Positions 1-11,318 of a DNA stretch of 11,318 nucleotides are shown piece after piece. The stretch is from a virus. Taxonomy: Duplodnaviria > Heunggongvirae > Uroviricota > Caudoviricetes. The notes beneath the pieces are model-generated. The model was not told the DNA's origin. It made no database searches and was given only the letters and a program-made list of their open reading frames with translations. Made by a program: the position numbers and the translations under genes. Location of the stretch: the IMG/VR virus record IMGVR_UViG_2778261301_000003, positions 1 through 11,318 of that record. One strand, 5' to 3'. Every line of letters begins with the position of its first letter. Within the stretch, counting starts at the first letter, position 1.

Positions 1-78
1 ATGCTTCCATCGGAAACGATGATCTGGCAGCCTGAGTTCACAGATAAAACACTCTCCAGGAAACCCGGGGCGGTTCAT
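1..78 (-). CDS. Hypothetical protein, 5' portion only (gene continues beyond window start)
   Basis: Reverse-strand ATG at 78-76 in frame to the window edge (MNRPGFPGECFICELRLPDHRFRWKH...), with a weak AAGG Shine-Dalgarno 5 nt upstream. Only 26 codons are visible. Confidence 0.25.
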   Translation of the reverse strand, partial: MNRPGFPGECFICELRLPDHRFRWKH

Positions 79-150
79 TACGCCTTGCTCCATCTTCCGC
101 CATATCGGCATGAATAAGGTCTGCGAGTGTGCTCACATTCACCTCTCCAG

Positions 151-333
151 TTACATTGGTTTTGTAATGTTGCTAGTCATCTTGCGAATAAAAAGATGCG
201 TAAGTAGCCTTGCTTCCCACATGTAAATCTCTTCAAGGCGAGATAAATCTACGAACACCGGACCTTTGTAATCTGGTCTTGATGCCCTTATGTATGAGCT
301 AATAGTTTGTGCATCTTGCTCGTCCAGATTCAT
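151..333 (-). CDS. Hypothetical small protein (60 aa) downstream of ren
   Basis: Track ORF 151..351 begins at a TTG; the first ATG is at 333-331, preceded by a purine-rich SD (GGGGGAGAGGGAAG). No recognisable motif. Confidence 0.4.
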   Translation of the reverse strand: MNLDEQDAQTISSYIRASRPDYKGPVFVDLSRLEEIYMWEARLLTHLFIRKMTSNITKPM

Positions 334-349
334 GACTTCCCTCTCCCCC

Positions 350-381
350 AAATAAAAAGGCCTGCGATTACCAGCAGGCCT
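350..381 (-). terminator. Intrinsic terminator after ren (tR2-like position)
   Basis: Minus-strand hairpin with stem GGCCTGC/GCAGGCC (359-365 and 374-380) and an 8-nt loop, followed on the minus strand by a U-rich tract (A-run 350-358 on the plus strand). Confidence 0.45.
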
Positions 382-406
382 GTTATTAGCTCAGTAATGT
401 AGATGG

Positions 407-697
407 TCATTGCCTTACCTCCATAAGCGCCCTATTAATAAACGCCGTCATTGGATTTGCACATCCCCACCCCGTACCATCTGGATTTCTTTTAATTGGC
501 TCCTTCTTCACTTTGCGTTTTGCATAAATAACCGTCTTCCACTTACGCTCAACAACACTCAAATGCCCTTGTTTCACCATATGCCTTGCTGCTTGAGCGA
601 TTCTGTTATTTGGTATTCCTGTGATCAGTGCTAATTCATGTGGGGAGAATTGTTCATGAGTTTTCAGATATTCCAGGATGATTTCTTTTCCAGTCAC
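407..697 (-). CDS. ren: Ren-like protein (96 aa)
   Basis: Same length as lambda Ren and a similar N-terminus (MTGKE.II.YL.TH...) from memory; located immediately downstream of the replication genes, with its start overlapping the upstream gene's stop (694-697). Confidence 0.55.
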   Translation of the reverse strand: MTGKEIILEYLKTHEQFSPHELALITGIPNNRIAQAARHMVKQGHLSVVERKWKTVIYAKRKVKKEPIKRNPDGTGWGCANPMTAFINRALMEVRQ

Positions 698-1587
698 GAT
701 CTGCTCCTGTAACTATCCCATGTAAACGCAAGAGTGCACCCGCCGCCATCATTCATTCTGTCAATAACACGCTCACCAATGAATGCCGAAAGTTCATCTT
801 TGCTCTGATTACTAATCAGGATTGTTGGCTTCATGTATTCATATCTGGTGTTGATAATTTCGAACATGATTAGCTTTTCAGCATCACTGCCGAACTGCAC
901 GCCAACCTCATCGATTATTAACAAGTCAGGATGCGTAAATTGCCTAATGACTTCTTCTTCAGTTCTGGTTGCGGCCTTAGACCATGTTGATTTGTACTCT
1001 CTGGCAATTTTCAACGCAGTGGTAAATATCACAGAGCTTTGATGCTCGATAATGGCGTGCCTAGCGATAGCCAGTGCAAGATGGTTCTTTCCAGTTCCAG
1101 GCTTACCACACATGACCAGTCCGCCACCTTTTTGAAGGCGTTCAGGCCACTTACAGGCATATGCCTGGCATACCTTAAGAACTCGCTTTGCATCATCGTT
1201 AACAGGCTCATAATTCTGAAGAGTGCAATTTTTGAACCTCTCTGGAATATTGAGAGAATTCAACAAGTATTCAATTTTTGATTGTCTTGCTCTTTGTTCT
1301 GCCTGCTCACGTTCAATCTCTTTCTTACGAATTTTCTCCTCAAGGCACTGTGGGCACTCAGATTTACTTGAAGTAATTCTTTTTCCTGAGATGGTCAGAT
1401 ATTTCTCATAGGAAGTATATTTACCGTGTTTCTCGCACTCTTCCACTGTGCTGGTAACTGACATTCCATCTGATGCTGATCCAATTTTGCTAAACTCAAG
1501 TTTCTGTTTCAGATCAGAAATGTCATTGATTTTTGAGTCTACAAGTTGCCTTTGCAGTGCCAGATTGTAACCATTTGTCGTATTCAT
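694..1587 (-). CDS. DnaC-like replicative helicase loader (IstB/DnaC-type AAA+ ATPase), occupying the lambda P slot
   Basis: Walker A GKPGTGKNHLA and Walker B LLIIDEVG are visible, with a Cys-containing N-terminal region (CEKHG...CPQC). Start chosen at ATG 1587 with AGGAG SD 5 nt upstream and 2 nt after the O stop; the track's upstream ATG at 1605 lies inside O. Confidence 0.8.
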   Translation of the reverse strand: MNTTNGYNLALQRQLVDSKINDISDLKQKLEFSKIGSASDGMSVTSTVEECEKHGKYTSYEKYLTISGKRITSSKSECPQCLEEKIRKKEIEREQAEQRARQSKIEYLLNSLNIPERFKNCTLQNYEPVNDDAKRVLKVCQAYACKWPERLQKGGGLVMCGKPGTGKNHLALAIARHAIIEHQSSVIFTTALKIAREYKSTWSKAATRTEEEVIRQFTHPDLLIIDEVGVQFGSDAEKLIMFEIINTRYEYMKPTILISNQSKDELSAFIGERVIDRMNDGGGCTLAFTWDSYRSRS

Positions 1588-1589
1588 AT

Positions 1590-2435
1590 TCACTCCTGCG
1601 CCCATGAAGGCATTTCAGTTTGTCCGTAATCTTTGGCGGCAAAGTTTTCCTGCATAGCTCGATGCTGCGGCCTCGGTTGAGGTTTCCCCTTTGGAGTCTT
1701 GGGCTCAAAAATCCCCTGCCAACCACTGGCGATGCTCTGGTTTATAATTTCTTCAGGTGTATATCCCTTCTCCAGACTTCTGCTTAGAACGTTGATAGCC
1801 TGAGTGACACTTTGCTTAGACTTGATCGACTTACCTATCTCCTTGCGATAGGTAACCCACGACAACCATGTTTCTGCTGATAACCAATCAGGCAACTCTG
1901 TTTCTAGCGGGTCGAACTTCTGAGAAACTTTTTTGGGGGATATAGGGGGTTTATTAATATTTTCTTTTGTCTTTAAAGAATGTCTTTTGTGTGTCTCTAA
2001 CTTCGAGACATTGAGTGTCTCTAATTTGGAGACATTTTTTGTCTCTAACTTCGAGACAAAGTTGCTAACTTGGAGACACTTGCTGAATTGCCACGCAGAT
2101 ACCTCCCTGTTTACACCGATTTTATTTCCATCCATAAACAGGCAATTCATTGAAATCAGTTCTTTTTTAGCCTTGTTAACATTCTGCCTTGACAGTCCTG
2201 TTAACTGAGCAATTTGCTCATCGGCTATTCGATCTGTTTTCTTATTGAAGCCATATGTTTTCCGGACGTAGGCCAGCATAACTTTCAACTGGCGAGCGGT
2301 TAAATCGGCACTTGCGATAGCTTCCAGCAGCTCGTTAGCGAATCTGGTGTAACCATCATCGATATCAGCCACTCTTAGCTCCTGTTCGGCAAAGTTACCT
2401 CTGCCGAAGTTGAGTATTTTTGCTGTATTTGTCAT
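1590..2435 (-). CDS. O: Replication initiator protein O (lambda O family)
   Basis: N-terminus MTNTAKILNFGRGNFA... matches lambda O from memory; the coding region contains the ori iterons (translated as repeated VSKLET) and an adjacent AT-rich tract, as in lambda ori. Confidence 0.85.
   Translation of the reverse strand: MTNTAKILNFGRGNFAEQELRVADIDDGYTRFANELLEAIASADLTARQLKVMLAYVRKTYGFNKKTDRIADEQIAQLTGLSRQNVNKAKKELISMNCLFMDGNKIGVNREVSAWQFSKCLQVSNFVSKLETKNVSKLETLNVSKLETHKRHSLKTKENINKPPISPKKVSQKFDPLETELPDWLSAETWLSWVTYRKEIGKSIKSKQSVTQAINVLSRSLEKGYTPEEIINQSIASGWQGIFEPKTPKGKPQPRPQHRAMQENFAAKDYGQTEMPSWAQE
1992..2078. repeat. Origin of replication iterons (4 copies, about 24-bp period) inside the O gene
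   Basis: TGTCTCTAACTTCGAGACA at 1992-2010 and 2040-2058, TGTCTCTAATTTGGAGACA at 2016-2034, and a degenerate fourth copy at 2060-2078. Each has inverted-repeat arms TGTCTC/GAGACA. An AT-rich tract at 1921-1991 lies on the O-downstream side. Confidence 0.7.
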
Positions 2436-2447
2436 AATGACTCCTGT

Positions 2448-2524
2448 GGATTGATCCAGTAATGACCTCAGAACTCCATCTGGATTTGATCAGAACGCTC
2501 GGTTGCCGCCGGGCGTTTTTTATT
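2448..2524 (+). ncRNA. oop: oop antisense RNA with pO promoter upstream and intrinsic terminator at its 3' end
   Basis: Sequence TTGATCCAGTAATGACCTCAGAACTCCATCTGGATTTGATCAGAACGCTCGGTTGCCGCCGGGCGTTTTTTATT is near-identical to lambda oop RNA from memory. Candidate pO -35 TTGAGT (2410-2415) and -10 CATAAT (2433-2438); the RNA is antisense to the cII 3' end. Confidence 0.7.
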
Positions 2525-2764
2525 GGTGAGTCCATCAAGCGCATACTTAAAAGCCCTGCTAATCGGACTGATATCTGATGCCATTCCGAAAGCACACAAG
2601 ACCGAAGCAATAAATCTCCAGTCCGTTCTGCTTATCTTCGATTCATGACAGCCAATCATCTTTGCCAGACCGCGCTGGGTAAGCGTTGACAGGTTGATGA
2701 GTAAATCTGTTTCTGCGCGATCAACGTCGCGCTGTGATAGTTTGCTGTAACTTGTTTGTTCCAT
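2468..2764 (-). CDS. cII: cII-family transcriptional activator (98 aa)
   Basis: C-terminus LTNKKRPAATERSDQIQMEF matches the lambda cII C-terminus from memory; the N-terminal HTH region (QRGLAKMIGCHESKISR) is divergent. Position between cro and O. Confidence 0.75.
   Translation of the reverse strand: MEQTSYSKLSQRDVDRAETDLLINLSTLTQRGLAKMIGCHESKISRTDWRFIASVLCAFGMASDISPISRAFKYALDGLTNKKRPAATERSDQIQMEF
2742..2755 (+). promoter_or_regulatory. pRE-like cII-binding motif (TTGC-N6-TTGT) overlapping the cII start region
   Basis: TTGCTGTAACTTGT on the plus strand resembles the TTGC-N6-TTGC cII box of lambda pRE, and is oriented to drive antisense-cro/cI transcription. The second half-site is imperfect. 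Confidence 0.35.
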
Positions 2765-2828
2765 TTCTTACTATTTCCATAGGTAAATAATCACTAATAC
2801 TCATCTTTCGATGAGTGATTAATTAGTT

Positions 2829-2863
2829 ACCGCGTTGTCGGCGGTGCAGATTGATAAAGAGCG
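2829..2863 (-). promoter_or_regulatory. nutR (boxA plus P22-type boxB)
   Basis: On the minus strand, boxA CGCTCTTTAT (2854-2863) is followed 8 nt later by the hairpin ACCGCCGACAACGCGGT (2829-2845) with a GACAA loop, between cro and cII. Confidence 0.6.
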
Positions 2864-2870
2864 GTGTTAC

Positions 2871-3080
<210 letters not shown>

Positions 3081-3097
3081 TTAGTACATGCAATCAT

Positions 3098-3161
3098 TAT
3101 CACCGCCAGAGGTAAAATAGTCAACACGCACGGTGTTAGATATTTATCCCTTGCGGTGATA
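3098..3161. promoter_or_regulatory. OR operator cluster (OR1, OR2, OR3) with divergent pR and pRM
   Basis: TATCACCGCCAGAGGTA (3098-3114), CAACACGCACGGTGTTA (3122-3138) and TATCCCTTGCGGTGATA (3145-3161) match lambda OR1/OR2/OR3. The cI ATG at 3172 sits right at the expected pRM leaderless start. Confidence 0.9.
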
Positions 3162-3168
3162 GATTTAA

Positions 3169-3885
<717 letters not shown>

Positions 3886-3892
3886 CACGTAA

Positions 3893-4330
3893 ATGATTAA
3901 AGAACGTATTTCTTATATCATTCCGATTGCGATGGATGAAGGCAACCCCGTAACTCCAGTTCTTATCTATGAAATGGATAAAGACTCCCATGAAGTGGAT
4001 CTGTCATTTGGCGCTTTTTTTATCGGCCTTAAGGCTACAAAAAAATATTCCATAGGCATTGAGGTTTTCAATGCTCAAGAAATACCGATACCAATTGACA
4101 CAAAACTGTACTCCAACCATAAGTTTTTTACGGTAGCAGAAGCCAACGATGGAGAAACCATCGTATCAACTTCTATGAGAATTAACTTCCCAAGGGTGAA
4201 AATTATCAAGCCTGGGATATTCGAAGTTAGAGCATCACTGGTTAATCCTGAGAAAGGCGAAGTAATTGATGTAAAAAGTTCGTTTTTTGACGTGAAGATA
4301 ACAGGATCAGTTCGCGATGAGTTTAGATAA
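3893..4330 (+). CDS. Hypothetical soluble protein (145 aa) in the rexA-equivalent position
   Basis: ATG 7 nt after the cI stop with no obvious SD, suggesting coupling to cI translation. No TM segment or signal peptide; hydrophobic/polar alternation suggests a beta-rich fold. Not RexA-like by size (145 vs 279 aa); no recognisable catalytic motif. Confidence 0.6.
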   Translation: MIKERISYIIPIAMDEGNPVTPVLIYEMDKDSHEVDLSFGAFFIGLKATKKYSIGIEVFNAQEIPIPIDTKLYSNHKFFTVAEANDGETIVSTSMRINFPRVKIIKPGIFEVRASLVNPEKGEVIDVKSSFFDVKITGSVRDEFR

Positions 4331-4688
4331 CAAGGTTGCTCAGCTTCGTCCAAATCAAAACATATCTCGCCCAATTGGACACTATTCCACTGATGATGCA
4401 TACTCTCGGCATGGTGGAGGAAACGGCGGAGGTAACATGCTTGAGGCTAGAGTTGCAAAGCTAGAGTCTGATGTTGAATACATCAAGCGCGATCTCGCTG
4501 AGGTAAAGTCAGATATAAAATCTGTTGATTCTCGTCTGTCAGGTATTGAGACAAGCATTAGCTCAGCAAAAACCACCATTAAGGCATCTGCGGTCGTTGT
4601 CAGTTTCGTGTTCGCATTTTGCGCCTACATTTTTGGAAGTTATGTATCCAAAATCCTTGATGCCTTAAACGGACTCGTTCTTAAGTAA
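4317..4688 (+). CDS. Hypothetical tail-anchored membrane protein (123 aa): Gly-rich N-terminus, coiled coil, single C-terminal TM helix
   Basis: ATG at 4317 overlaps the upstream stop (4328-4330). An alternative start at ATG 4437 with GGAGG 4 nt upstream would give 83 aa. Heptad-like segment LEARVAKLESDVEYIKRDLAEVKSDIKSVDSRL, then hydrophobic AVVVSFVFAFCAYIFGSYV. Architecture resembles XhlA-like or holin-like small membrane proteins (from memory, unverified). Confidence 0.6.
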   Translation: MSLDNKVAQLRPNQNISRPIGHYSTDDAYSRHGGGNGGGNMLEARVAKLESDVEYIKRDLAEVKSDIKSVDSRLSGIETSISSAKTTIKASAVVVSFVFAFCAYIFGSYVSKILDALNGLVLK

Positions 4689-4694
4689 CACACA

Positions 4695-4721
4695 ACCCGG
4701 CCTCAGTGCCGGGTTTTCTTT
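4695..4721 (+). terminator. Intrinsic terminator closing the cI operon (t-imm equivalent)
   Basis: Stem ACCCGGC/GCCGGGT (4695-4701 and 4708-4714) with loop CTCAGT, followed by TTTTCTTT. Confidence 0.7.
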
Positions 4722-4872
4722 GCCTCTCGATCCCCCCCTCCCAACAACACATAACCATTTGTATTTATTGGAAAACTAATAGATACAACTTGCTAAACAG
4801 TGCAATTCTGATCCCTCACCTACCTAACAATTCACCCCTGCAAAAAATAAATCCATATAAAAAACATACAGA

Positions 4873-4935
4873 TAACCATCTGCGGTGATAAATTATCTCT
4901 AGCGGTGTTGACACAAATACCACTAGCGGTGATAC
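4873..4935 (+). promoter_or_regulatory. OL operator cluster (OL3, OL2, OL1) with pL promoter reading rightward
   Basis: AACCATCTGCGGTGATA (4873-4889), TATCTCTAGCGGTGTTG (4893-4909) and TACCACTAGCGGTGATA (4917-4933) are lambda-type 17-mers. pL -35 TTGACA (4907-4912) and -10 GATACT (4930-4935), followed by the conserved ACATCAGCAGGACGC start region. Confidence 0.9.
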
Positions 4936-4981
4936 TAAACACATCAGCAGGACGCTGGAAGCCAAACGGAACAGATTGGCA

Positions 4982-5016
4982 TGCTCTTTAACTTCGATGG
5001 GGCGCTGACAAAGCGC
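4982..5016 (+). promoter_or_regulatory. nutL (boxA plus P22-type boxB)
   Basis: boxA TGCTCTTTAAC (4982-4992) and boxB hairpin GCGCTGACAAAGCGC (5002-5016) with a GACAA pentaloop, in the pL leader upstream of N. Confidence 0.7.
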
Positions 5017-5135
5017 AAACAGATACCAAACGAGATGGGTTTGGCGGTGATGTGAATTGCAGATGCAACGACAGCAACCAGAAGATCAGCACCTGGCGCA
5101 TCACCACCAAAGCCATTTCACATGAGGAAAACATC

Positions 5136-5444
5136 ATGACGGTAATCGTGTACGGAAAATCAACATTTGCAGGAAATGCCAAAACTCGCCGTCATGAGCG
5201 GCGCAGAAAGCTGGCTATCGAGCGTGATTCCATCTGCAACATCATCGATTCGATCTTCGGCACAGACAGTGAGGAAGATGTTCAGGAAGAACCGAGAAAG
5301 CGTTTAAGTCTTTCTGAAAAAGCAATATCACTCGGCATCATCAGTAAATCAAATACAGATGCGAATGGCGGAAGCGTTTGTTTGCCTGAAGTTGCACTGT
5401 ATGCTGCTGGTTACAGGTCAATGAAATCAATTACGGCGAGATAG
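5136..5444 (+). CDS. N: Antitermination protein N, P22 type (102 aa)
   Basis: N-terminal arginine-rich motif GNAKTRRHERRRKLAIERD matches the P22 N boxB-binding peptide (from memory). Start at ATG 5136 with AGGAA SD; the track's 130-aa ORF from 5052 runs into the nut leader and is rejected. Confidence 0.85.
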   Translation: MTVIVYGKSTFAGNAKTRRHERRRKLAIERDSICNIIDSIFGTDSEEDVQEEPRKRLSLSEKAISLGIISKSNTDANGGSVCLPEVALYAAGYRSMKSITAR

Positions 5445-5446
5445 AA

Positions 5447-5713
5447 ATGACTAGCAAACAAGTATCATATAAATGCTATTGCCCTTTATGTGGAAGAAAA
5501 TTCAGCGCCAAGGCAGCATGGAAGCATATCAATGATTATCATCCAAAAGCATCAGAACGTGAGTTGATGATGATAAGAGATGTAAAACGAGAAAAAATTT
5601 CTTTCGCAACAAAGCCACTAAACGCCAACAAAAACGCAATATTGTATCAAATGCATCGTTCAAGTGGTCCAGATTATTCTGGAGGGCTTCCATCTCTTGG
5701 AAAGAAAAAATAA
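5447..5713 (+). CDS. Small zinc-finger protein (88 aa), C2H2-like
   Basis: Motif C-x2-C-x11-H-x4-H (CPLCGRKFSAKAAWKHINDYH) near the N-terminus; starts 2 nt after the N stop; basic C-terminal tail. Confidence 0.55.
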   Translation: MTSKQVSYKCYCPLCGRKFSAKAAWKHINDYHPKASERELMMIRDVKREKISFATKPLNANKNAILYQMHRSSGPDYSGGLPSLGKKK

Positions 5714-5733
5714 CCACGCTCATGCTGGTTTTT
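5712..5733 (+). terminator. Possible weak intrinsic terminator (tL1-like) after the zinc-finger gene
   Basis: Imperfect hairpin AACCACGC/GCTGGTT (one bulge) with loop TCAT, followed by TTT, immediately after the stop at 5711-5713. Confidence 0.3.
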
Positions 5734-5846
5734 AATGACATAAATAACCGTATTTACTACCGCAAGCCACGCAGTGAAATGGGTGTGACTTGTGTTGGTC
5801 GCCAGAAAATGAAATTAGGCAGCAAACCACTTATTTGAGGTGAGAT

Positions 5847-6212
5847 ATGGAAGAACAAGCAAACAAGATTCTCGTAGAACTACTGCAAAAAGCCAGTAAT
5901 GGAATAGACGCGGCTGTTTCATTTAGCCAGGCACAGATTCCTGATGTCATCCATCAGCTTTTGATGTGGCACGCCGTATCATCAGCTGGAATTCAGGCTA
6001 TCTGTGTATTGGTGATTATAGCGTGTGTTTATCTGATGATTTTTGCATGGAATAAAGGAGATGATGCAGATATTGTTATTTTATCACTACTTGTCACATC
6101 AGGAATAGCGATTACTTCTATTGTTGTTTTCTTCAATTATTTCGACTGGCTGAAAATTTGGCTTGCTCCAAAACTTTACCTTATCGAATATGCCGCATCA
6201 TTGGTTAAGTAA
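5847..6212 (+). CDS. Small inner-membrane protein (121 aa, two predicted TM helices)
   Basis: GAGGTGAG SD upstream of ATG 5847; hydrophobic segments AVSSAGIQAICVLVIIACVYLMIFAW and IVILSLLVTSGIAITSIVVFFNYF. Confidence 0.6.
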   Translation: MEEQANKILVELLQKASNGIDAAVSFSQAQIPDVIHQLLMWHAVSSAGIQAICVLVIIACVYLMIFAWNKGDDADIVILSLLVTSGIAITSIVVFFNYFDWLKIWLAPKLYLIEYAASLVK

Positions 6213-6265
6213 TTTCATGCCGCATAGTCGGCCTTTATTTTTGGCATAAACAATATGGGGTAAAA

Positions 6266-6592
6266 ATGAAAGTTTTAATGGTTTATGAAAATGTTCCAGA
6301 GTCGACTGAAATCTATATTTTTGATGCCAATGAAGATGAAGTTAACGATTTGAAATTGTCTCACGGCAATTACACAAATGCTAATTGTGATGAAAGTATC
6401 GAAAAAGCACTATCACGTGTTCTTGTCAGAATTAGTGATCCAGAACATTGTGATGATGATTGGCTTTCTTATTGTGGAGCGGTAAAAACTGATGCAGGAA
6501 AATGGAGTAAAAGTAAAGTTGATAACTCAACTCCAATCATTATGAAAGATAGTGATATTGAAATGGTAATAATAACCGGAATGATTATGTAG
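6266..6592 (+). CDS. Hypothetical acidic protein (108 aa)
   Basis: ORF with a G-rich SD; about 21 Asp/Glu versus about 10 Lys/Arg by hand count; AT-rich codon usage typical of moron genes. Confidence 0.5.
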   Translation: MKVLMVYENVPESTEIYIFDANEDEVNDLKLSHGNYTNANCDESIEKALSRVLVRISDPEHCDDDWLSYCGAVKTDAGKWSKSKVDNSTPIIMKDSDIEMVIITGMIM

Positions 6593-6608
6593 GCTGCGAA
6601 TAAGCACT

Positions 6609-6636
6609 GTGTATTCATTCAAACGAGTGAATACAC
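6609..6636 (+). other. Perfect 9-bp inverted repeat (GTGTATTCA-N10-TGAATACAC) in the intergenic region
   Basis: Arms at 6609-6617 and 6628-6636; no U-tract follows. Could be an RNA hairpin (processing site or pause) or a dimeric protein-binding site. Confidence 0.35.
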
Positions 6637-6737
6637 GGAGCAATGTCGCTCGTAACTAAACAGGAGCCGACTTGTTCTGATTATTGGAAATCTTCTTTGC
6701 CCTCCAATGTGAGGGCAATTTTTTTGACGGAGGATAT

Positions 6738-7049
6738 ATGAAATTACGTGTCTGGCATATCCCGCAAGTACCTATGAAGCCGTTCATTGTAGAAGTGGCA
6801 AGTGTTGAAGAGGGTGTTCGCTTGATGGATGCACTGGCTGATTATGACGCCTTTCAGTATGACAACAACATCAAGCCTGACTACTGCAATGCTAACGGCC
6901 TTGAGATGTGGGATGAGAGCCTTACTGATGAAGATTTATCAGAGATGGAGCTTACGGATCGCTGGGTAGATTGGTACAGCGAATGCCAATGTTACGACGA
7001 CCCACGTAAATATATCGAAAGCCTGAAAGAAGAAACCTCAGCAGCCTGA
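6738..7049 (+). CDS. Hypothetical acidic protein (103 aa)
   Basis: Start chosen at ATG 6738 with GGAGG SD (track ORF starts earlier at 6684 without an SD); about 24 acidic versus about 10 basic residues; Cys pairs (CNANG, ECQC). Confidence 0.55.
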   Translation: MKLRVWHIPQVPMKPFIVEVASVEEGVRLMDALADYDAFQYDNNIKPDYCNANGLEMWDESLTDEDLSEMELTDRWVDWYSECQCYDDPRKYIESLKEETSAA

Positions 7050-7084
7050 GCGCGGATTTGACGCATACAAATTAAGGAGGATAT

Positions 7085-8053
7085 ATGAGTGAAGTAACAG
7101 ACTTAGTTGTTATTGAAAAAGCAAATGCAATGACTGTATTTCAGTCTGCAGACCAGATTGAAGAAATTCTCCAAAAGGTTGAACGTGAAGTTATGTCCTT
7201 TGTGCCTGATATCACAACGGCAAAGGGCAGAAAGGAGATCGCTTCTCTGGCGTATAAAGTTGCGCAGACGAAAACATATCTCGATGGTCTTGGCAAAGAC
7301 CTTGTTGCTGAACTGAAGGAAATTCCAAAGCTAATTGATGCTAACCGCAAGACAGTGCGTGATCGCCTTGATGAGCTGAAAGCCAAGGCGCGCCAGCCTC
7401 TTACTGATTATGAGGAGGAGCAGGCACGGATTAAAGCCGAAGAAGAAGCTAAGGCAGCAGCCGAAGCTCTCGCAAAGCAAATTGAGTCTGACCATGAAAT
7501 AGCGATTTTGATGGATCGCGAATTTGACCGCCAAAGAGAAGAGGCAAGACTCAAAGCGGAGCAGGAAAAGCGAGAGCATGAAGAACGCTTAAAAAGAGAA
7601 GCTGAAGAGAAAGCCAGAGCTGAAGCCGAAGCAAAGGCAAAAGCCGAAATTGAAGCAGCAGCAAGGCGAGAAGCAGAAGCTAAGGCAGCAGCGGAACGTG
7701 CAGAGCGTGAACGTATTGAAGCCGAGCAACGAGCACAGCGCGAAGCAAAAGAGGCAGCAGAACGAGCTGAAAGAGAAAAGCATGCGGCAATTGAAGCAGA
7801 ACGTCGTAAAGCACAGGAGGAGGCTGAACGAATCCGGCGCGAGGCTGAAGCAAAAGAGCAAGCCAGAATAGCAGAAGAAAAAAGAATCAAGGACGAAGAA
7901 GAGCGTAGAGCAAAGGATAAAGCTCACCGGAAAGAAGTAAATAACAAAATACTGGCTGACCTTATCAAGGTTGGCGCATCAGAAGATGTTGCTAAAAATA
8001 TCATAACAGCCATCGTAAAAGGCGAAGTATTCGCAACAAAAATAACCTACTAA
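7085..8053 (+). CDS. Hypothetical protein (322 aa) with a long Ala/Glu/Lys/Arg-rich helical repeat region
   Basis: Strong SD AAGGAGG; N-terminal domain of about 115 aa, a central low-complexity A/E/K/R-rich segment of roughly 170 aa (TolA domain II-like composition), and a C-terminal domain of about 40 aa. Confidence 0.7.
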   Translation: MSEVTDLVVIEKANAMTVFQSADQIEEILQKVEREVMSFVPDITTAKGRKEIASLAYKVAQTKTYLDGLGKDLVAELKEIPKLIDANRKTVRDRLDELKAKARQPLTDYEEEQARIKAEEEAKAAAEALAKQIESDHEIAILMDREFDRQREEARLKAEQEKREHEERLKREAEEKARAEAEAKAKAEIEAAARREAEAKAAAERAERERIEAEQRAQREAKEAAERAEREKHAAIEAERRKAQEEAERIRREAEAKEQARIAEEKRIKDEEERRAKDKAHRKEVNNKILADLIKVGASEDVAKNIITAIVKGEVFATKITY

Positions 8054-8077
8054 TAAAACCAACATAAGGAACCACCC

Positions 8078-8224
8078 ATGATTTACGCAATCGCGGGAGG
8101 CGCTCGCATGGGTGCCTTCCAATTAAATGAATCTTTACTTGAACGAATCACCCGTAAATTACGTGACGGATGGAAACGCCTTATCGACATACTTAATCAG
8201 CCAGGAGTTCCCAAAAATGGATAA
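8078..8224 (+). CDS. cIII: cIII protein (48 aa), anti-FtsH regulator of cII stability
   Basis: Translation MIYAIAGGARMGAFQLNESLLERITRKLRDGWKRLIDILNQPGVPKNG matches the lambda cIII core (ESLLERITRKLRDGWKRLIDILNQPGVPKNG) from memory; AAGGA SD. Below the 60-aa ORF-track cutoff, so found by hand. Confidence 0.85.
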   Translation: MIYAIAGGARMGAFQLNESLLERITRKLRDGWKRLIDILNQPGVPKNG

Positions 8225-8330
8225 AACACTTATGGCTATCCAGACTAAATTCACTATCGCCACTTTTATTGGCGATGAAAAGATGTTTCGTGAGGCCGTC
8301 GAAGCCTACAGGAAATGGAGGTCAAAATGA
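8217..8330 (+). CDS. kil: Kil-like small protein (37 aa)
   Basis: Starts inside the cIII stop region with AGGAG SD; MDKTLMAIQTKFTIATFIGDEKMFREAVEAY resembles lambda Kil as I recall it, and the position right after cIII is correct. Confidence 0.5.
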   Translation: MDKTLMAIQTKFTIATFIGDEKMFREAVEAYRKWRSK

Positions 8331-8515
8331 TTCCGGTAGAACTGGCGAAAACTCCAGAGTTAAGTCGATTAAAAAGAGAATATCACATTGCTGAGGCTCG
8401 TTACTGGCGTAAAGCGGGAGATAAATCAAAGAAACAACTTTGTTTATGGCAGGCACAAAGAGAGCGCATGAATGAGCGCGAGTTTCTTTCCCCCCCATCC
8501 AAATTACCATTCTGA
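8327..8515 (+). CDS. Hypothetical small basic protein (62 aa)
   Basis: ATG 8327 with GGAGG 5 nt upstream, overlapping the kil stop (ATGA); the track's upstream start at 8315 lacks SD spacing. Confidence 0.45.
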   Translation: MIPVELAKTPELSRLKREYHIAEARYWRKAGDKSKKQLCLWQAQRERMNEREFLSPPSKLPF

Positions 8516-8523
8516 GGCAAATT

Positions 8524-9204
8524 ATGGGAACTGCGACATTAATACTCGGTGAGTCTGGCACCGGAAAATCAACCAGCATGAGAAATATCAATCCAGAGGA
8601 AGCAATACTTATAAAACCAATAGGCAAGCCGCTTCCATTTAAATCAAAAGACTGGCTGGCATGGGATGCCAGAGCAAAAAAAGGAACCGTAGTTACCACT
8701 GACAAATGGGACGTAATAGTTGCCGTAATTAAGCGTGCTCACGAATACGGGAAAAGAATCGTTATTGTTGATGACTTCCAGTATGTGATGAGCAATGAGT
8801 TTATGCGCCGCTCAGAAGAAAAATCGTTTGATAAATTTACTGAGATAGGCCGCCACGCATGGGAGGTGATTAAGGCTGCACAGGATGCACCTGATGACCT
8901 GAGAGTCTATTTTCTTGCGCACACCGAAGAAACCCCTATGGGGCGCGTGAAAATGAAAACTATCGGCAAAATGCTGGACGAGAAAATCACTGTCGAAGGC
9001 ATGTTTACTATAGTTCTTCGCACTCTTACCCGCGATGACCAGTTCTTTTTCACCACGAAAAACAACGGTGCAGACACTGTTAAATCCCCAATGGGAATGT
9101 TTGATTCCAATGAGATTGATAACGATCTCTCTTTCGTCGATGCCACTGTTTGTGATTACTACGGCATCAATAATGTTCATCAAATTAAGGAAAACGCCGC
9201 ATGA
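8524..9204 (+). CDS. Sak4-like RecA-core ATPase (AAA_24-type), phage recombination protein
   Basis: N-terminal Walker A LILGESGTGKST and Walker B-like IVIVDD, about 226 aa; located where lambda has the Red genes and followed by an SSB-like gene. Confidence 0.6.
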   Translation: MGTATLILGESGTGKSTSMRNINPEEAILIKPIGKPLPFKSKDWLAWDARAKKGTVVTTDKWDVIVAVIKRAHEYGKRIVIVDDFQYVMSNEFMRRSEEKSFDKFTEIGRHAWEVIKAAQDAPDDLRVYFLAHTEETPMGRVKMKTIGKMLDEKITVEGMFTIVLRTLTRDDQFFFTTKNNGADTVKSPMGMFDSNEIDNDLSFVDATVCDYYGINNVHQIKENAA

Positions 9205-9788
9205 GCAACGTGATTTTTACTTATAACGAAGAAGCAGCACTGACCGCAGGGCAAGGTGGTTTTATTAACGAAACTGGCGCTCATATCATTACCATTACTG
9301 AAGCAGAACTAAAGCAATCAGAAAAAGGAGCCAAATTTATTGAGTTTTCTGGCGAATCCGACGACGGACGTAAAATCCAATATCTTAGCGTCTGTGTTCA
9401 GAAAAATGACGGAACGGAAAACAAATTTGGCGCAAATGTCGTTCACGCCATGATGGGGTGTGCCGGGATTGGACAATTAACGCAGCATATGGTTTCCGCC
9501 AGTAAATTTGTTGCTCCTGAGTTTCACGGAAAGAAAATCGGGTTAGTGCTACAGAAAGTATTAACCACAAACAAAAAGACTGGTGCAGACAGTTACCAGA
9601 TGGAAATACGCATCCCGTTTATTGCACAAACAGGCCAAACACTTAAAGAAAAGGCGGAAGGCAAGCAACCAGAAACTATCGCCAACATGGTTTCCAGCCT
9701 CAAAGATAAAGACAATCGCTCTAAAAACGTAAGCCAGAATCATGCAGATGATTATGGTTACAGCCAGAACGATTACCCTCCTTTCTGA
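9201..9788 (+). CDS. Putative ssDNA-binding protein partner of Sak4 (195 aa)
   Basis: ATGA overlap with the upstream gene; acidic C-terminal tail ending ...DDYGYSQNDYPPF, reminiscent of the acidic tails with terminal Phe in SSB and T7 gp2.5. The OB fold is not verifiable by eye. Confidence 0.4.
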   Translation: MSNVIFTYNEEAALTAGQGGFINETGAHIITITEAELKQSEKGAKFIEFSGESDDGRKIQYLSVCVQKNDGTENKFGANVVHAMMGCAGIGQLTQHMVSASKFVAPEFHGKKIGLVLQKVLTTNKKTGADSYQMEIRIPFIAQTGQTLKEKAEGKQPETIANMVSSLKDKDNRSKNVSQNHADDYGYSQNDYPPF

Positions 9789-9811
9789 TTATTGAAAATA
9801 AGGCTCCCATT

Positions 9812-10108
9812 ATGCCAGCGCCTCTGTATGGTGCGGATGACCCGCGCCGCTGTTCCGGCAATTCCGTATCGGAGGTGCTGGATAAATTCAGAAAAAACTA
9901 CGACCGGATAATGTCGCTACCGCAGGAAACGAAAGAGGAAAAGGAATTTCGCCATTGTATATGGCTTGCAGAGAAAGAAGAACGCGAGCGAATTTACCAG
10001 ACATCAATCCGACCATTCCGCAAAGCCACATATACCCACTTCCCTGAATATATCGACCCTCGCCTGCGTAATTACCGCTCACGCTATGGCGCTATCAGTA
10101 ATGACTGA
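9812..10108 (+). CDS. Hypothetical protein (98 aa)
   Basis: ATG-initiated ORF in the operon, weak AAGG SD; charged, Arg-rich, no recognisable motif. Confidence 0.45.
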
Positions 10109-10118
10109 GGAATTTACC

Positions 10119-10286
10119 ATGAGAGGACTTGCATACAATCCCGGCATTCTTCCGGCAGAAATGATTATTCGCCAACGAGTAAAGCCAATGCCATCGAGAG
10201 AGGAATTGCTTAAGAGAAATTCTTTTCCATCAGTGAATCAAAACAAATATCTGAATGCGATGTGGCGCAAAGGAGGCGACCAGTGA
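10119..10286 (+). CDS. Hypothetical small protein (55 aa)
   Basis: ATG 10119 with GAGG SD, starting 10 nt after the upstream stop; the longer track ORF from 9966 overlaps the previous gene. Confidence 0.35.
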
Positions 10287-11026
10287 GCAAAATTAACTAT
10301 CAGGCACTGCGTGAAGCGGCAGAGAAAGCCGGTGAAGATAAGTGGCAGGCTAAAAAAATAAATGGTGATTTTTTCGTTATTCGTCACGGTAGTTATACAA
10401 GACAGCATGGCTACACATCGTATCAACCCATTGCGGAGATTGATTGTAAGCCAGTCCGGGATTTTGTTGCCAAGGCTAATCCGGCTACCGTGCTGGCACT
10501 GCTGGATGAGAACGAAAGCATGTGCCGCGACCTCATTGCTCGCAATGGTGAGATTGAAGGGCTTCGAAAACTGGTTGCTGAACTTGAGGAGACAAAATCA
10601 AAACTCAACGAGCAGCGTGAATATTACGAAGGTGTTATCTCGGATGGAAGTAAGCGTATTGCTGAACTGGAGAAAAGCGAAGAGCAACTCATCAATGAGC
10701 GTGACCATGCTGAGTCTGCTTTAGCTGATATGTATTTTGCAGCAACCGGGGATAGGCCGGAGTGGAGTAACTGGTTCGGCTTTTCAGATGCCGTCGATAC
10801 CGTGGTTGACAGAATTGCTGATTTAGAAGCTAAACAGCCATCGCCAGCAGTACTGGAAGGACTGGTTAAAGCAGTGCGCTTCTATGAACAGGTAAAGTGT
10901 GAGAATCCGCCAGCTGAAACCGGAGCATGGAAGGACGCTGTTGACTGGGTGCTTAAAGAGGCTTGTCAGGCTGTAAATATTGGCACCAAAGGAGACGCAG
11001 GAGAGCAAAGCGATGAAAAACCGTAA
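10283..11026 (+). CDS. Ead/Ea22-like early-region protein (about 247 aa)
   Basis: GTG start at 10283 with AGGAGG SD 6 nt upstream, overlapping the previous stop. N-terminus [16 protein letters not shown]... and a central coiled coil resemble lambdoid Ea22-family proteins as I recall them. Confidence 0.5.
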
Positions 11027-11201
11027 AGCAAAGATTCTGTTAGCTCGCAGAAACGGTGTTGGGGTCTGGCGATGGTTGAGGATTAGCAACAGACGAGTGA
11101 GGTTGACGGGGTGTTGCGGGGTGATGGGGCACAGTTGTTGCAAAAAGCCCAGTGCGGCGCAAAACCGCTGGAAAAACCACTTGCGCACTAAAGGAGAGTG
11201 A
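11013..11201 (+). CDS. Possible small basic Cys-rich protein (62 aa)
   Basis: ATG 11013 with AGGAG SD, overlapping the previous stop; R/K-rich with CC-x5-CC; the coding region is G-rich. Could be non-coding. Confidence 0.3.
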   Translation: MKNRKAKILLARRNGVGVWRWLRISNRRVRLTGCCGVMGHSCCKKPSAAQNRWKNHLRTKGE

Positions 11202-11202
11202 T

Positions 11203-11318
11203 ATGGCGTTAACACACCGAGAACTCTGTCAGATTGCGTATAAGTTCCTTAAGCGCAACGGGTTCAAGGTTTGTTTTCATGACCGCTTTATAGCTGTAAC
11301 CAGTACCGGAGAACAGCC
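11203..11318 (+). CDS. Hypothetical protein, 5' portion only (continues past window end)
   Basis: ATG 11203 with AAAGGAGAG SD; open to the window edge (MALTHRELCQIAYKFLKRNGFKVCFHDRFIAVTSTGEQ...). Confidence 0.4.
   Translation, partial: MALTHRELCQIAYKFLKRNGFKVCFHDRFIAVTSTGEQ

Follow-up and report, generated by a model that had tools for sequence, protein, structure and literature searches.

Lambda-type prophages carry a slot directly behind the repressor gene cI that in lambda holds rexA and rexB, the classic abortive-infection system of lysogens (PMC8585504, PMC11077077). What fills this slot when the rex genes are missing, and could the replacement also serve in phage exclusion? The question is raised by positions 1 to 11,318 of IMG/VR record IMGVR_UViG_2778261301_000003, the whole of which we refer to as the window. 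A sequence-only reading of this DNA had proposed that the two genes following cI form a cassette unrelated to rexAB, and both its coordinates and that claim were correct on alignment to lambda. We call the two open reading frames (ORFs) ORF-A and ORF-B, or A and B. Judged from their sequences and setting, they are a good candidate for a phage-exclusion system. The slot had been recognized before as a hotspot for accessory genes, and a remark of 2008 on Salmonella phage epsilon34 had already pointed to this gene pair. What is new here is the exact breakpoints, a structure-level description of both proteins, a modular family centered on B, a link between the class of B's partner and the class of its N-terminal tail, and a candidate internal start within B.

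An unrelated gene pair in the rexA-rexB slot

The operon and its borders comprise the following features; aa, nt and bp stand for amino acids, nucleotides and base pairs.

3172-3885, + strand: cI repressor gene of the lambda immunity type, first gene of the operon (Pfam HTH_3 and Peptidase_S24)
3882-4693, + strand: cargo segment replacing the lambda cI-rexA spacer, rexA and rexB (blastn against lambda)
3893-4330, + strand: ORF-A, 145 aa, epsilon34 gp45 family (PHROG 5893)
4317-4688, + strand: ORF-B in its long form, 123 aa, epsilon34 gp44 family (PHROG 6136)
4694-4721, + strand: intrinsic terminator, homologue of lambda t_imm (8-bp stem with six GC pairs, then a T-tract)

The flanks of the pair are those of lambda. 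In blastn comparisons, nucleotide identity is 92.9% over 2857-3881 and 89% over 4694-4955, and cI itself is about 93% identical to lambda cI in nucleotides and 95% in amino acids, with a ratio of nonsynonymous to synonymous substitution rates (dN/dS) of 0.06. cI, cro, OR and OL are all lambda-type, as had been claimed. The homology ends at 3881, 4 nt short of the cI stop, and starts again at 4694, and the 812 bp between these points stand in place of 1404 bp of lambda (spacer, rexA and rexB). By alignment, then, rexA-rexB is exactly replaced by an unrelated gene pair between the cI stop and t_imm.

The placement of the pair within the cI transcription unit also held up. ORF-A follows cI after the 7-nt spacer that had been reported (3886-3892), repressor and pair lie on one strand, and no terminator-like site was found on the + strand between cI and 4694, the only one after cI being that at 4694-4721, behind the last gene. 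An internal promoter candidate at 4376-4404 (score 9/12) was set aside, as promoter-like sites in the region are no more numerous than in shuffled sequences. The junction between the genes is a 14-nt overlap (B ATG at 4317, A TAA at 4328-4330) and not the overlapping ATGA stop/start that had been described, since the TGA of that ATGA is out of A's frame. The hairpin and T-tract are strong but do not close off acquired cargo as proposed. Lambda homology picks up again at 4694, where the stem begins, and in lambda this stem stands right behind rexB. The terminator is thus lambda's own t_imm and belongs to the conserved flank. Its position "just before OL3" was mistaken, as OL3 begins about 150 bp farther on, a distance like that in lambda. 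The cassette is marginally more AT-rich than cI (41.3% against 43.7% G+C, with 43.5% for the window), an impression that the sequence-only reading had taken as a sign of acquisition. This is weak evidence and was rejected as such a mark, because 32 of 210 equal-sized stretches are as low; the only notable value in the cassette is the 37.9% of ORF-A. The best explanation of this layout is that 3882-4693 would form a mobile, lysogen-expressed accessory operon within the cI operon, starting at pRM or pRE and ending at t_imm. Expression of the cassette in lysogens is very probable on these grounds; no expression data for the pair were found in the searchable literature.

Homology to the rex genes was rejected. 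Pfam and NCBIfam scans placed neither protein in a Rex family, and BLASTP against lambda RexA and RexB gave nothing significant, the best match being 49 aa in a transmembrane (TM) region (E = 0.012). The pair shares with RexAB the identical slot, two genes cotranscribed with cI and the combination of a soluble with a membrane protein. However, as had been predicted from size and topology, the parts differ: RexA is a 279-aa DNA-binding protein and A a 145-aa beta-sandwich without TM segments, while RexB is a 144-aa multi-pass protein and B a single-pass, tail-anchored coiled coil. The 7-nt gap behind cI and the overlapping genes also set the cassette apart from rexAB.

Comparison of the cI-to-OL interval across lambda-immunity phages bears out the view of the slot as a hotspot, with rexAB or unrelated genes in it elsewhere (HK97, HK544, HK542/HK244, mEp332, CL707, ev099). 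The cI-to-N interval is described as a mosaic hotspot with abortive-infection genes (Degnan 2007, as cited in PMC8585504), and RexAB and BstA, both abortive-infection systems, lie in it (PMC8585504). BstA of prophage BTP1 is a proven abortive-infection protein (PMC8585504), and it has in common with HK97 gp48/49 and the cargoes of HK544, HK542, mEp332, CL707 and ev099 expression in lysogens and the position downstream of the repressor, whose promoter these genes presumably share. Unlike the present pair, BstA acts as one protein and has a self-immunity element based on DNA, and in tblastn searches with A and B none of these phages (BTP1, HK97, HK544, HK542, mEp332, CL707, ev099) matched.

Two proteins, one soluble and one in the membrane

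ORF-A matches phrog_5893 over the whole profile (E = 3.4e-64, positions 1-140 of 140), and ORF-B does the same with phrog_6136 (E = 2.9e-46, positions 1-120 of 120). Profile searches thus assign both proteins to families, but both families are uncharacterized, and Pfam adds only a sub-threshold match of B to XhlA. For ORF-A, scans of Pfam, NCBIfam and PADLOC returned no family. An AlphaFold2 (AF2) model built on a 45-sequence alignment is an eight-stranded beta-sandwich with a mean predicted local distance difference test score (pLDDT) of 89.6 and a predicted template-modeling score (pTM) of 0.84. Fold comparison yielded generic immunoglobulin-like matches only, and a sequence search found no relative among solved structures. 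Conservation in the alignment falls on core residues (P, L, Y, G, F) and does not pick out a catalytic set; neither a signal peptide nor a TM segment is predicted, and a DNA-binding domain is absent from both the Pfam scan and the model. A beta-sandwich lacking a catalytic motif suggests a binding module, in this case a cytosolic one. When 1.84 billion representatives were searched exhaustively by profile, only 123 matched the A family at E<=1e-3, nearly all of them stand-alone proteins of 130-155 aa.

ORF-B is built from distinct segments.

4317-4412, + strand: N-terminal tail (N-tail), aa 1-32, variable, disordered (pLDDT <50) and partner-class-specific
4413-4436, + strand: Gly-rich hinge GGGNGGGN, also the recombination joint (from the alignment)
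4428-4439, + strand: candidate internal ribosome-binding site (RBS), GGAGG at 4428-4432, with ATG 4437, giving an 83-aa short B (4437-4688)
4437-4592, + strand: conserved coiled coil, aa 41-92, seven heptads
4572-4649, + strand: single C-terminal TM helix, aa 86-111, with a 12-aa tail behind it

In the AF2 model of B, residues 1-40 (N-tail and hinge) are disordered and residues 41-122 form one helix, with the TM part running on from the coiled coil without a break. The a and d positions are 93% hydrophobic in a single register, and many columns of the coiled coil are at least 90% invariant among homologues. The TM segment is the only hydrophobic one in B, with a maximum of 2.11 in a 19-aa Kyte-Doolittle window. 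Searches against PDB sequences returned coiled coils only, many of them trimeric and all weak (E 8e-4 or worse). Two lysines before the TM helix and a net-neutral tail after it favor an N-in, tail-anchored topology, and we infer from this and the model that B would be a tail-anchored protein of the inner membrane, most of it lying in the cytoplasm. The prediction of a soluble protein accompanied by a small membrane protein is thus borne out by TM prediction and by both AF2 models.

It could be argued that the two ORFs are chance or decaying frames. They have no annotated function, and the Shine-Dalgarno sequence of ORF-A is weak. Against this, dN/dS is 0.12 for ORF-A against epsilon34, 0.06-0.14 for the pair against the homologues in Escherichia coli E2348/69, 0.29 for the N-terminal part of B and 0.08 for residues 41-123 of B against phage ENT1. 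By these comparisons with homologues (0.06-0.29 overall), both ORFs are genuine genes under purifying selection. The confident fold of A, the 123 representatives of its family, the 76 clusters of B homologues and synteny across genera point the same way, and with such conservation the idea of functionless frames is effectively refuted.

Modular organization of gene B

In P22-like Salmonella phages, true homologues of A and B lie directly behind a different repressor (epsilon34 gp45/gp44, g341c gp40/gp39 and phage NM-3). The epsilon34 pair was flagged at this post-repressor position in 2008 (PMC2629481). Its genes overlap by 14 nt, as in the window, and the repressor in front of them is of another immunity type. 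The A proteins are 73% identical, and the B proteins 63% over residues 1-65. At the nucleotide level, the window and epsilon34 are homologous from within cI, over its C-terminal half, across ORF-A and up to 4433, within the Gly hinge. Because the homology stops there, the distal half of epsilon34 B (coiled coil and TM helix) is a different module. Two partial matches in E. coli, LR-60 and EPSSH018, show the same limit: identity with the cassette extends only up to 4433 and is followed by another distal B module, which in LR-60 gives a B of 107 aa. The joint is at 4433 in the window, at 4541 in locus L001 and at 1748 in locus L091. As judged by these alignments, there is a recombination joint inside gene B at the hinge.

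The two sides of this joint have different associations. Among 51 unique pairs, the class of the partner protein and the class of the B N-tail have an adjusted mutual information (AMI) of 0.78, while the AMI is 0.10 between partner class and distal B module and 0.0 between N-tail and distal module. The A class of the window is paired with four distal B modules, and the distal module of the window ('...LDALNGLVLK') is paired with at least 12 partner classes, zinc-ribbon proteins included. These data fit a two-part design in which the partner and the B N-tail would make up one unit and the coiled coil with the TM helix the other. We infer that the N-tail may be the docking peptide of the partner, and we lean toward a complex of A and B formed through it. 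The fast divergence of A (15-45% identity) beside a coiled coil that is at least 90% invariant at many positions fits a variable sensor joined to a conserved effector.

The N-tail is itself part of the protein product. Between the partner's stop and the hinge, no stop codon interrupts the B frame in any of the 21 class representatives, and each has a start between -17 and +7 nt from that partner stop; the joint chance of this is P ~1e-20. With the frame open in all 21, the N-tail is certainly translated.

A shorter form of B may be made as well. A start codon lies right behind the hinge in all 32 unique homologues (ATG in 30, GTG in 2), three to four codons ahead of the invariant RVAKLE core, and GGAGG is found exactly 7 nt 5' of it in 21 of the 32. 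The GGAGG-start arrangement was observed 22 times, compared with 6.1+/-2.2 expected from synonymous shuffles with E. coli codon usage and 12.9+/-2.6 with uniform codon usage; the sequences behind these statistics are related to one another. At Gly position -4, 22 of 32 homologues use the rare codon GGA, while most other Gly positions of the hinge have 10-25% GGA (position -6 has 5 of 8). Such position-specific synonymous constraint points to an internal RBS and a short B lacking the N-tail, and suggests a second, tail-less isoform of 83 aa as a candidate product. By analogy, lambda S105/S107 (holin and antiholin) are likewise nested membrane proteins from two in-frame starts, of which the longer has a regulatory N-terminal extension. 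However, the S starts are two codons apart and those of B 40 codons, the extension of B appears to be a partner-binding tail, and the second B product is a candidate only.

Two nested products of this kind, candidate as they are, recall holin/antiholin regulation and lend themselves to a different view of the pair, as a toxin-antitoxin-like addiction module or one that acts in the phage's own life cycle. B would then be a small membrane toxin or XhlA-like holin accessory, neutralized or timed by A, and the pair would stabilize the prophage or tune lysis and induction. A small upstream gene overlapping a downstream membrane gene resembles type II toxin-antitoxin operons, and Rex itself affects the lysis-lysogeny switch (bioRxiv 10.1101/2021.04.19.439022). 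B homologues carry the NCBI label 'hemolysin XhlA', and XhlA (PF10779), known from Bacillus PBSX, is the best Pfam match of B, likewise consisting of a short coiled coil and then a C-terminal TM helix. This match covers residues 42-95 with 21.6 bits (E = 2.4e-4), which is below the gathering cut-off of 34.7 bits, and the NCBIfam scan of B gave no match to an XhlA model. Krogh and colleagues are said to have placed XhlA, in work of 1998, in a late lysis operon with holin and endolysin. The pair, on the other hand, lies in a lysogenic repressor operon and not near holin and endolysin like PBSX xhlA; it follows a repressor here, as it does in about 90% of the 82 loci. N-tail, hinge and dedicated partner likewise set B apart from XhlA, and A has no DNA-binding domain for autoregulation. 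We regard this explanation as improbable, and a toxin-antitoxin function would not be mutually exclusive with defense.

Distribution and genomic neighborhood

The cassette is rare within its slot. A search of 5426 complete E. coli genomes found the 836-bp cassette at >=98.7% identity in 14 and part of it in 2 more. Enteropathogenic E. coli (EPEC) E2348/69 is among the carriers, and there too the pair lies directly behind a lambda-type cI. In the same set, 618 genomes have a full-length lambda-type cI, which makes the cassette a minority cargo of the slot.

The wider family was sampled through B. A scan of IMG/VR with the B alignment gave 80 loci, and 82 loci with B homologues were available overall. 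In nearly all 82, simple ORF extraction finds a same-strand partner ORF abutting B, and its stop and the B start are -17 to +7 nt apart. Translation of the two genes is thus tightly coupled. The order repressor-A-B with an overlapping junction recurs in loci L001 and L002 and in 22 IMG/VR loci of the window's class. Partner classes were counted on 81 partner ORFs, before the locus of Salmonella phage UPF_BP1 joined the sample: 67 fall in an ORF-A superfamily that is very diverged (15-45% identity), while four-cysteine zinc-ribbon proteins of around 130 aa account for 11, a 90-aa protein for 2 and a further zinc-ribbon-like protein for the last one. Beside a zinc-ribbon partner, the B N-tail is of a different, matching class. 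Zinc-ribbon partners were seen in some Enterobacter and other prophages (L003 4578-5294, L030-L035, L054-L057). By source names, the hosts are Enterobacterales only, and the carriers are prophages of E. coli, Salmonella, Klebsiella, Enterobacter, Citrobacter, Yersinia and Serratia.

A DNA-binding repressor directly precedes the pair in about 71 of 78 loci (about 90%). These repressors span at least eight families, including HTH_3+S24 proteins of several kinds, Phage_CI_repr proteins with a helix-turn-helix domain only, S24-only proteins and Arc-like proteins, the last of which are Mnt. In phage UPF_BP1, a B-type pair whose partner protein (94 aa) is of a third kind occupies the interval from mnt to gene 16 (L089 1813-2785), and in P22 the same interval, in the immI region, holds orf59a and sieA (L090 4337-5771). 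That such pairs recur behind unrelated repressors strengthens the view of the cassette as an accessory operon expressed in lysogens. The mnt genes of UPF_BP1 and of P22 are both mis-annotated as 'partition protein ATPase'. A minority of the pairs do not follow a repressor and are found as morons in clusters of tail genes (L054 2942-4273; L056 2693-4252), next to tape-measure genes and DUF6246, and lie there among small secreted or lipoprotein-like ORFs.

These neighborhoods bear on two further explanations. The pair could exclude phages at the entry step and not by abortive infection: B would keep A on the inner membrane, facing the cytoplasm, and the complex would bind an incoming phage component, for instance a tape-measure or ejection protein or the injection channel, and block or abort genome entry so that the cell survives, in a manner comparable to P22 SieA, HK97 gp15 or the membrane-tethered SNIPE. 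This idea draws on the sibling cassette in the P22 sieA interval and on the pairs found as morons beside tape-measure genes. HK97 gp15 is also a moron beside the tape-measure gene. B is a small inner-membrane protein with nearly all its mass in the cytoplasm, A has a rapidly diversifying fold of the binding type, and SieA and gp15 are small prophage-expressed inner-membrane proteins as well. SNIPE provides an example of a membrane-anchored, cytoplasm-facing defense that acts during injection (PMC13190303). However, SieA and gp15 are single proteins and not tail-anchored coiled coils, no homology of the pair to SieA, gp15, Imm or SNIPE was detected, the periplasmic exposure of B is limited to its 12-aa tail, and neither a nuclease nor another activity is evident. 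Exclusion at entry is, in our estimation, an unlikely version of the function.

Alternatively, the pair may be a moron that benefits the lysogen in ways unrelated to phages, through envelope-stress tolerance, ribosome or membrane remodeling, or host colonization. It lies behind lysogeny promoters, occurs in pathogens (EPEC E2348/69, Salmonella), has morons with secreted or lipoprotein-like products as neighbors in tail clusters, and shows no defense signature in the PADLOC scan. On the other side, the rapid diversification of A and the swapping of modules are more typical of arms-race genes, the pair is consistently placed in slots known for exclusion genes, and no virulence-type domain was found. 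Lysogenic conversion of this sort seems to us improbable. The exact replacement of rexAB, the placement behind repressors and the sibling pair in the sieA interval count in favor of phage exclusion.

Possible function

Judging from gene content and context, the odds that the pair serves phage exclusion of any kind are about even, and a specifically abortive version, with a Rex-like membrane effector, is the one we favor, though it is doubtful in itself. In such a version, A would dock on the N-tail of full-length B, and this would tie a soluble recognition subunit to an oligomer of coiled coils embedded in the membrane. The conserved bundle of coiled coil and TM helix would be the part that acts on the membrane or provides the anchor. 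The internal RBS and ATG would also yield tail-less short B, and the result would be a mix of regulated and unregulated subunits, loosely like holin/antiholin pairs. When a component of a superinfecting phage engages A, the B bundle would be released, the inner membrane compromised and the infection aborted, following Rex-like logic with unrelated parts.

Put more broadly, the pair may represent a modular class of exclusion systems in the repressor operons of Enterobacterales prophages. At its center would be a tail-anchored coiled-coil membrane protein B, made in two nested forms by way of a conserved internal start, whose exchangeable N-tail recruits unrelated cytosolic recognition proteins (beta-sandwich, zinc-ribbon or 90-aa) and whose modules are shuffled at the Gly hinge and the coiled-coil core. 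We give this reading a probability of roughly 0.35.

Several observations weigh against the abortive version. The association of A with the N-tail may be plain linkage, as the two are encoded side by side and recombination could use the conserved coiled-coil core as a patch of homology. GGAGG motifs readily arise inside Gly-rich coding sequence, and in B of the window's type GGAGG is only 4 nt 5' of ATG 4437, a short spacing. Toxicity or pore formation by B is hypothetical, and the XhlA match is mostly coiled coil besides being sub-threshold. No match to known defense proteins was found with PADLOC: in PADLOC-DB v2, ORF-A had no match and ORF-B only weak coiled-coil matches (CorA-like, E = 0.0046; LmuB, E = 0.016), and the sensor-plus-effector logic of the original proposal drew no support from homology. 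Furthermore, some cargoes of the slot do non-defense jobs, for example Hex of phage 434 (PMC3564112). Apart from the 2008 remark on epsilon34, the searchable literature held nothing on the pair; a functional screen of E. coli prophage defenses (Brenes and Laub, 2025) was outside that search.

The family is missing from current defense-finder models. As a compact, unrelated cassette in the rexAB slot, the pair offers a simple model for how a lysogen couples a cytosolic recognition protein to a membrane component, for how modules of specificity and effect are shuffled between phages, and for whether internal translation initiation sets the ratio of regulated to unregulated subunits. Since prophages of seven enterobacterial genera carry such pairs, their phage-resistance spectrum would matter for phage therapy and prophage ecology.

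The remainder of the window

By sequence comparison, the window covers the immunity and early genes of a lambdoid prophage of mosaic make-up. The features flanking the operon are as follows.

694-1605, minus strand: IstB/DnaC-like loader
1590-2435, minus strand: O-type initiator
2468-2764, minus strand: cII
2871-3071, minus strand: cro
4874-4890, 4894-4910 and 4918-4934, + strand: OL3, OL2 and OL1 (aligned to annotated lambda operators)
4908-4936, + strand: pL (promoter scan, TTGACA-17-GATACT)

The promoter scan found pR and pL at their lambda positions. OL1 and OL2 have one common G-to-A difference from lambda (cTGGCGG to cTAGCGG), and OL3 has the lambda sequence. Beyond OL and pL, the order is the N gene and then a P22-like early-left operon. 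The N gene (5136-5444) has a Pfam N_peptide match, which establishes an N protein only; this gene and boxB (gcgctgacaaagcgc, 5001-5015) look P22-type, despite the lambda-type immunity. If they are, a mosaic joint would lie between pL and nutL.

The early-left operon includes a homologue of P22 gene 17 at 6684-7049 (Pfam PF17420, 'superinfection exclusion gene product 17', E = 4e-55), along with Kil, CIII (8078-8224) and the anti-RecBCD protein Abc2 (9812-10108). A 322-aa ORF at 7085-8053, to which Pfam assigns no family, has an extreme content of E, A, K and R, as in a long charged helix or coiled coil, and is kept in the E2348/69 prophage. On the other side of the immunity region, the O-type replication gene contains three 24-bp tandem repeats at 1987-2058 that encode VSKLET repeats and are presumably the iterons of the origin (ori).

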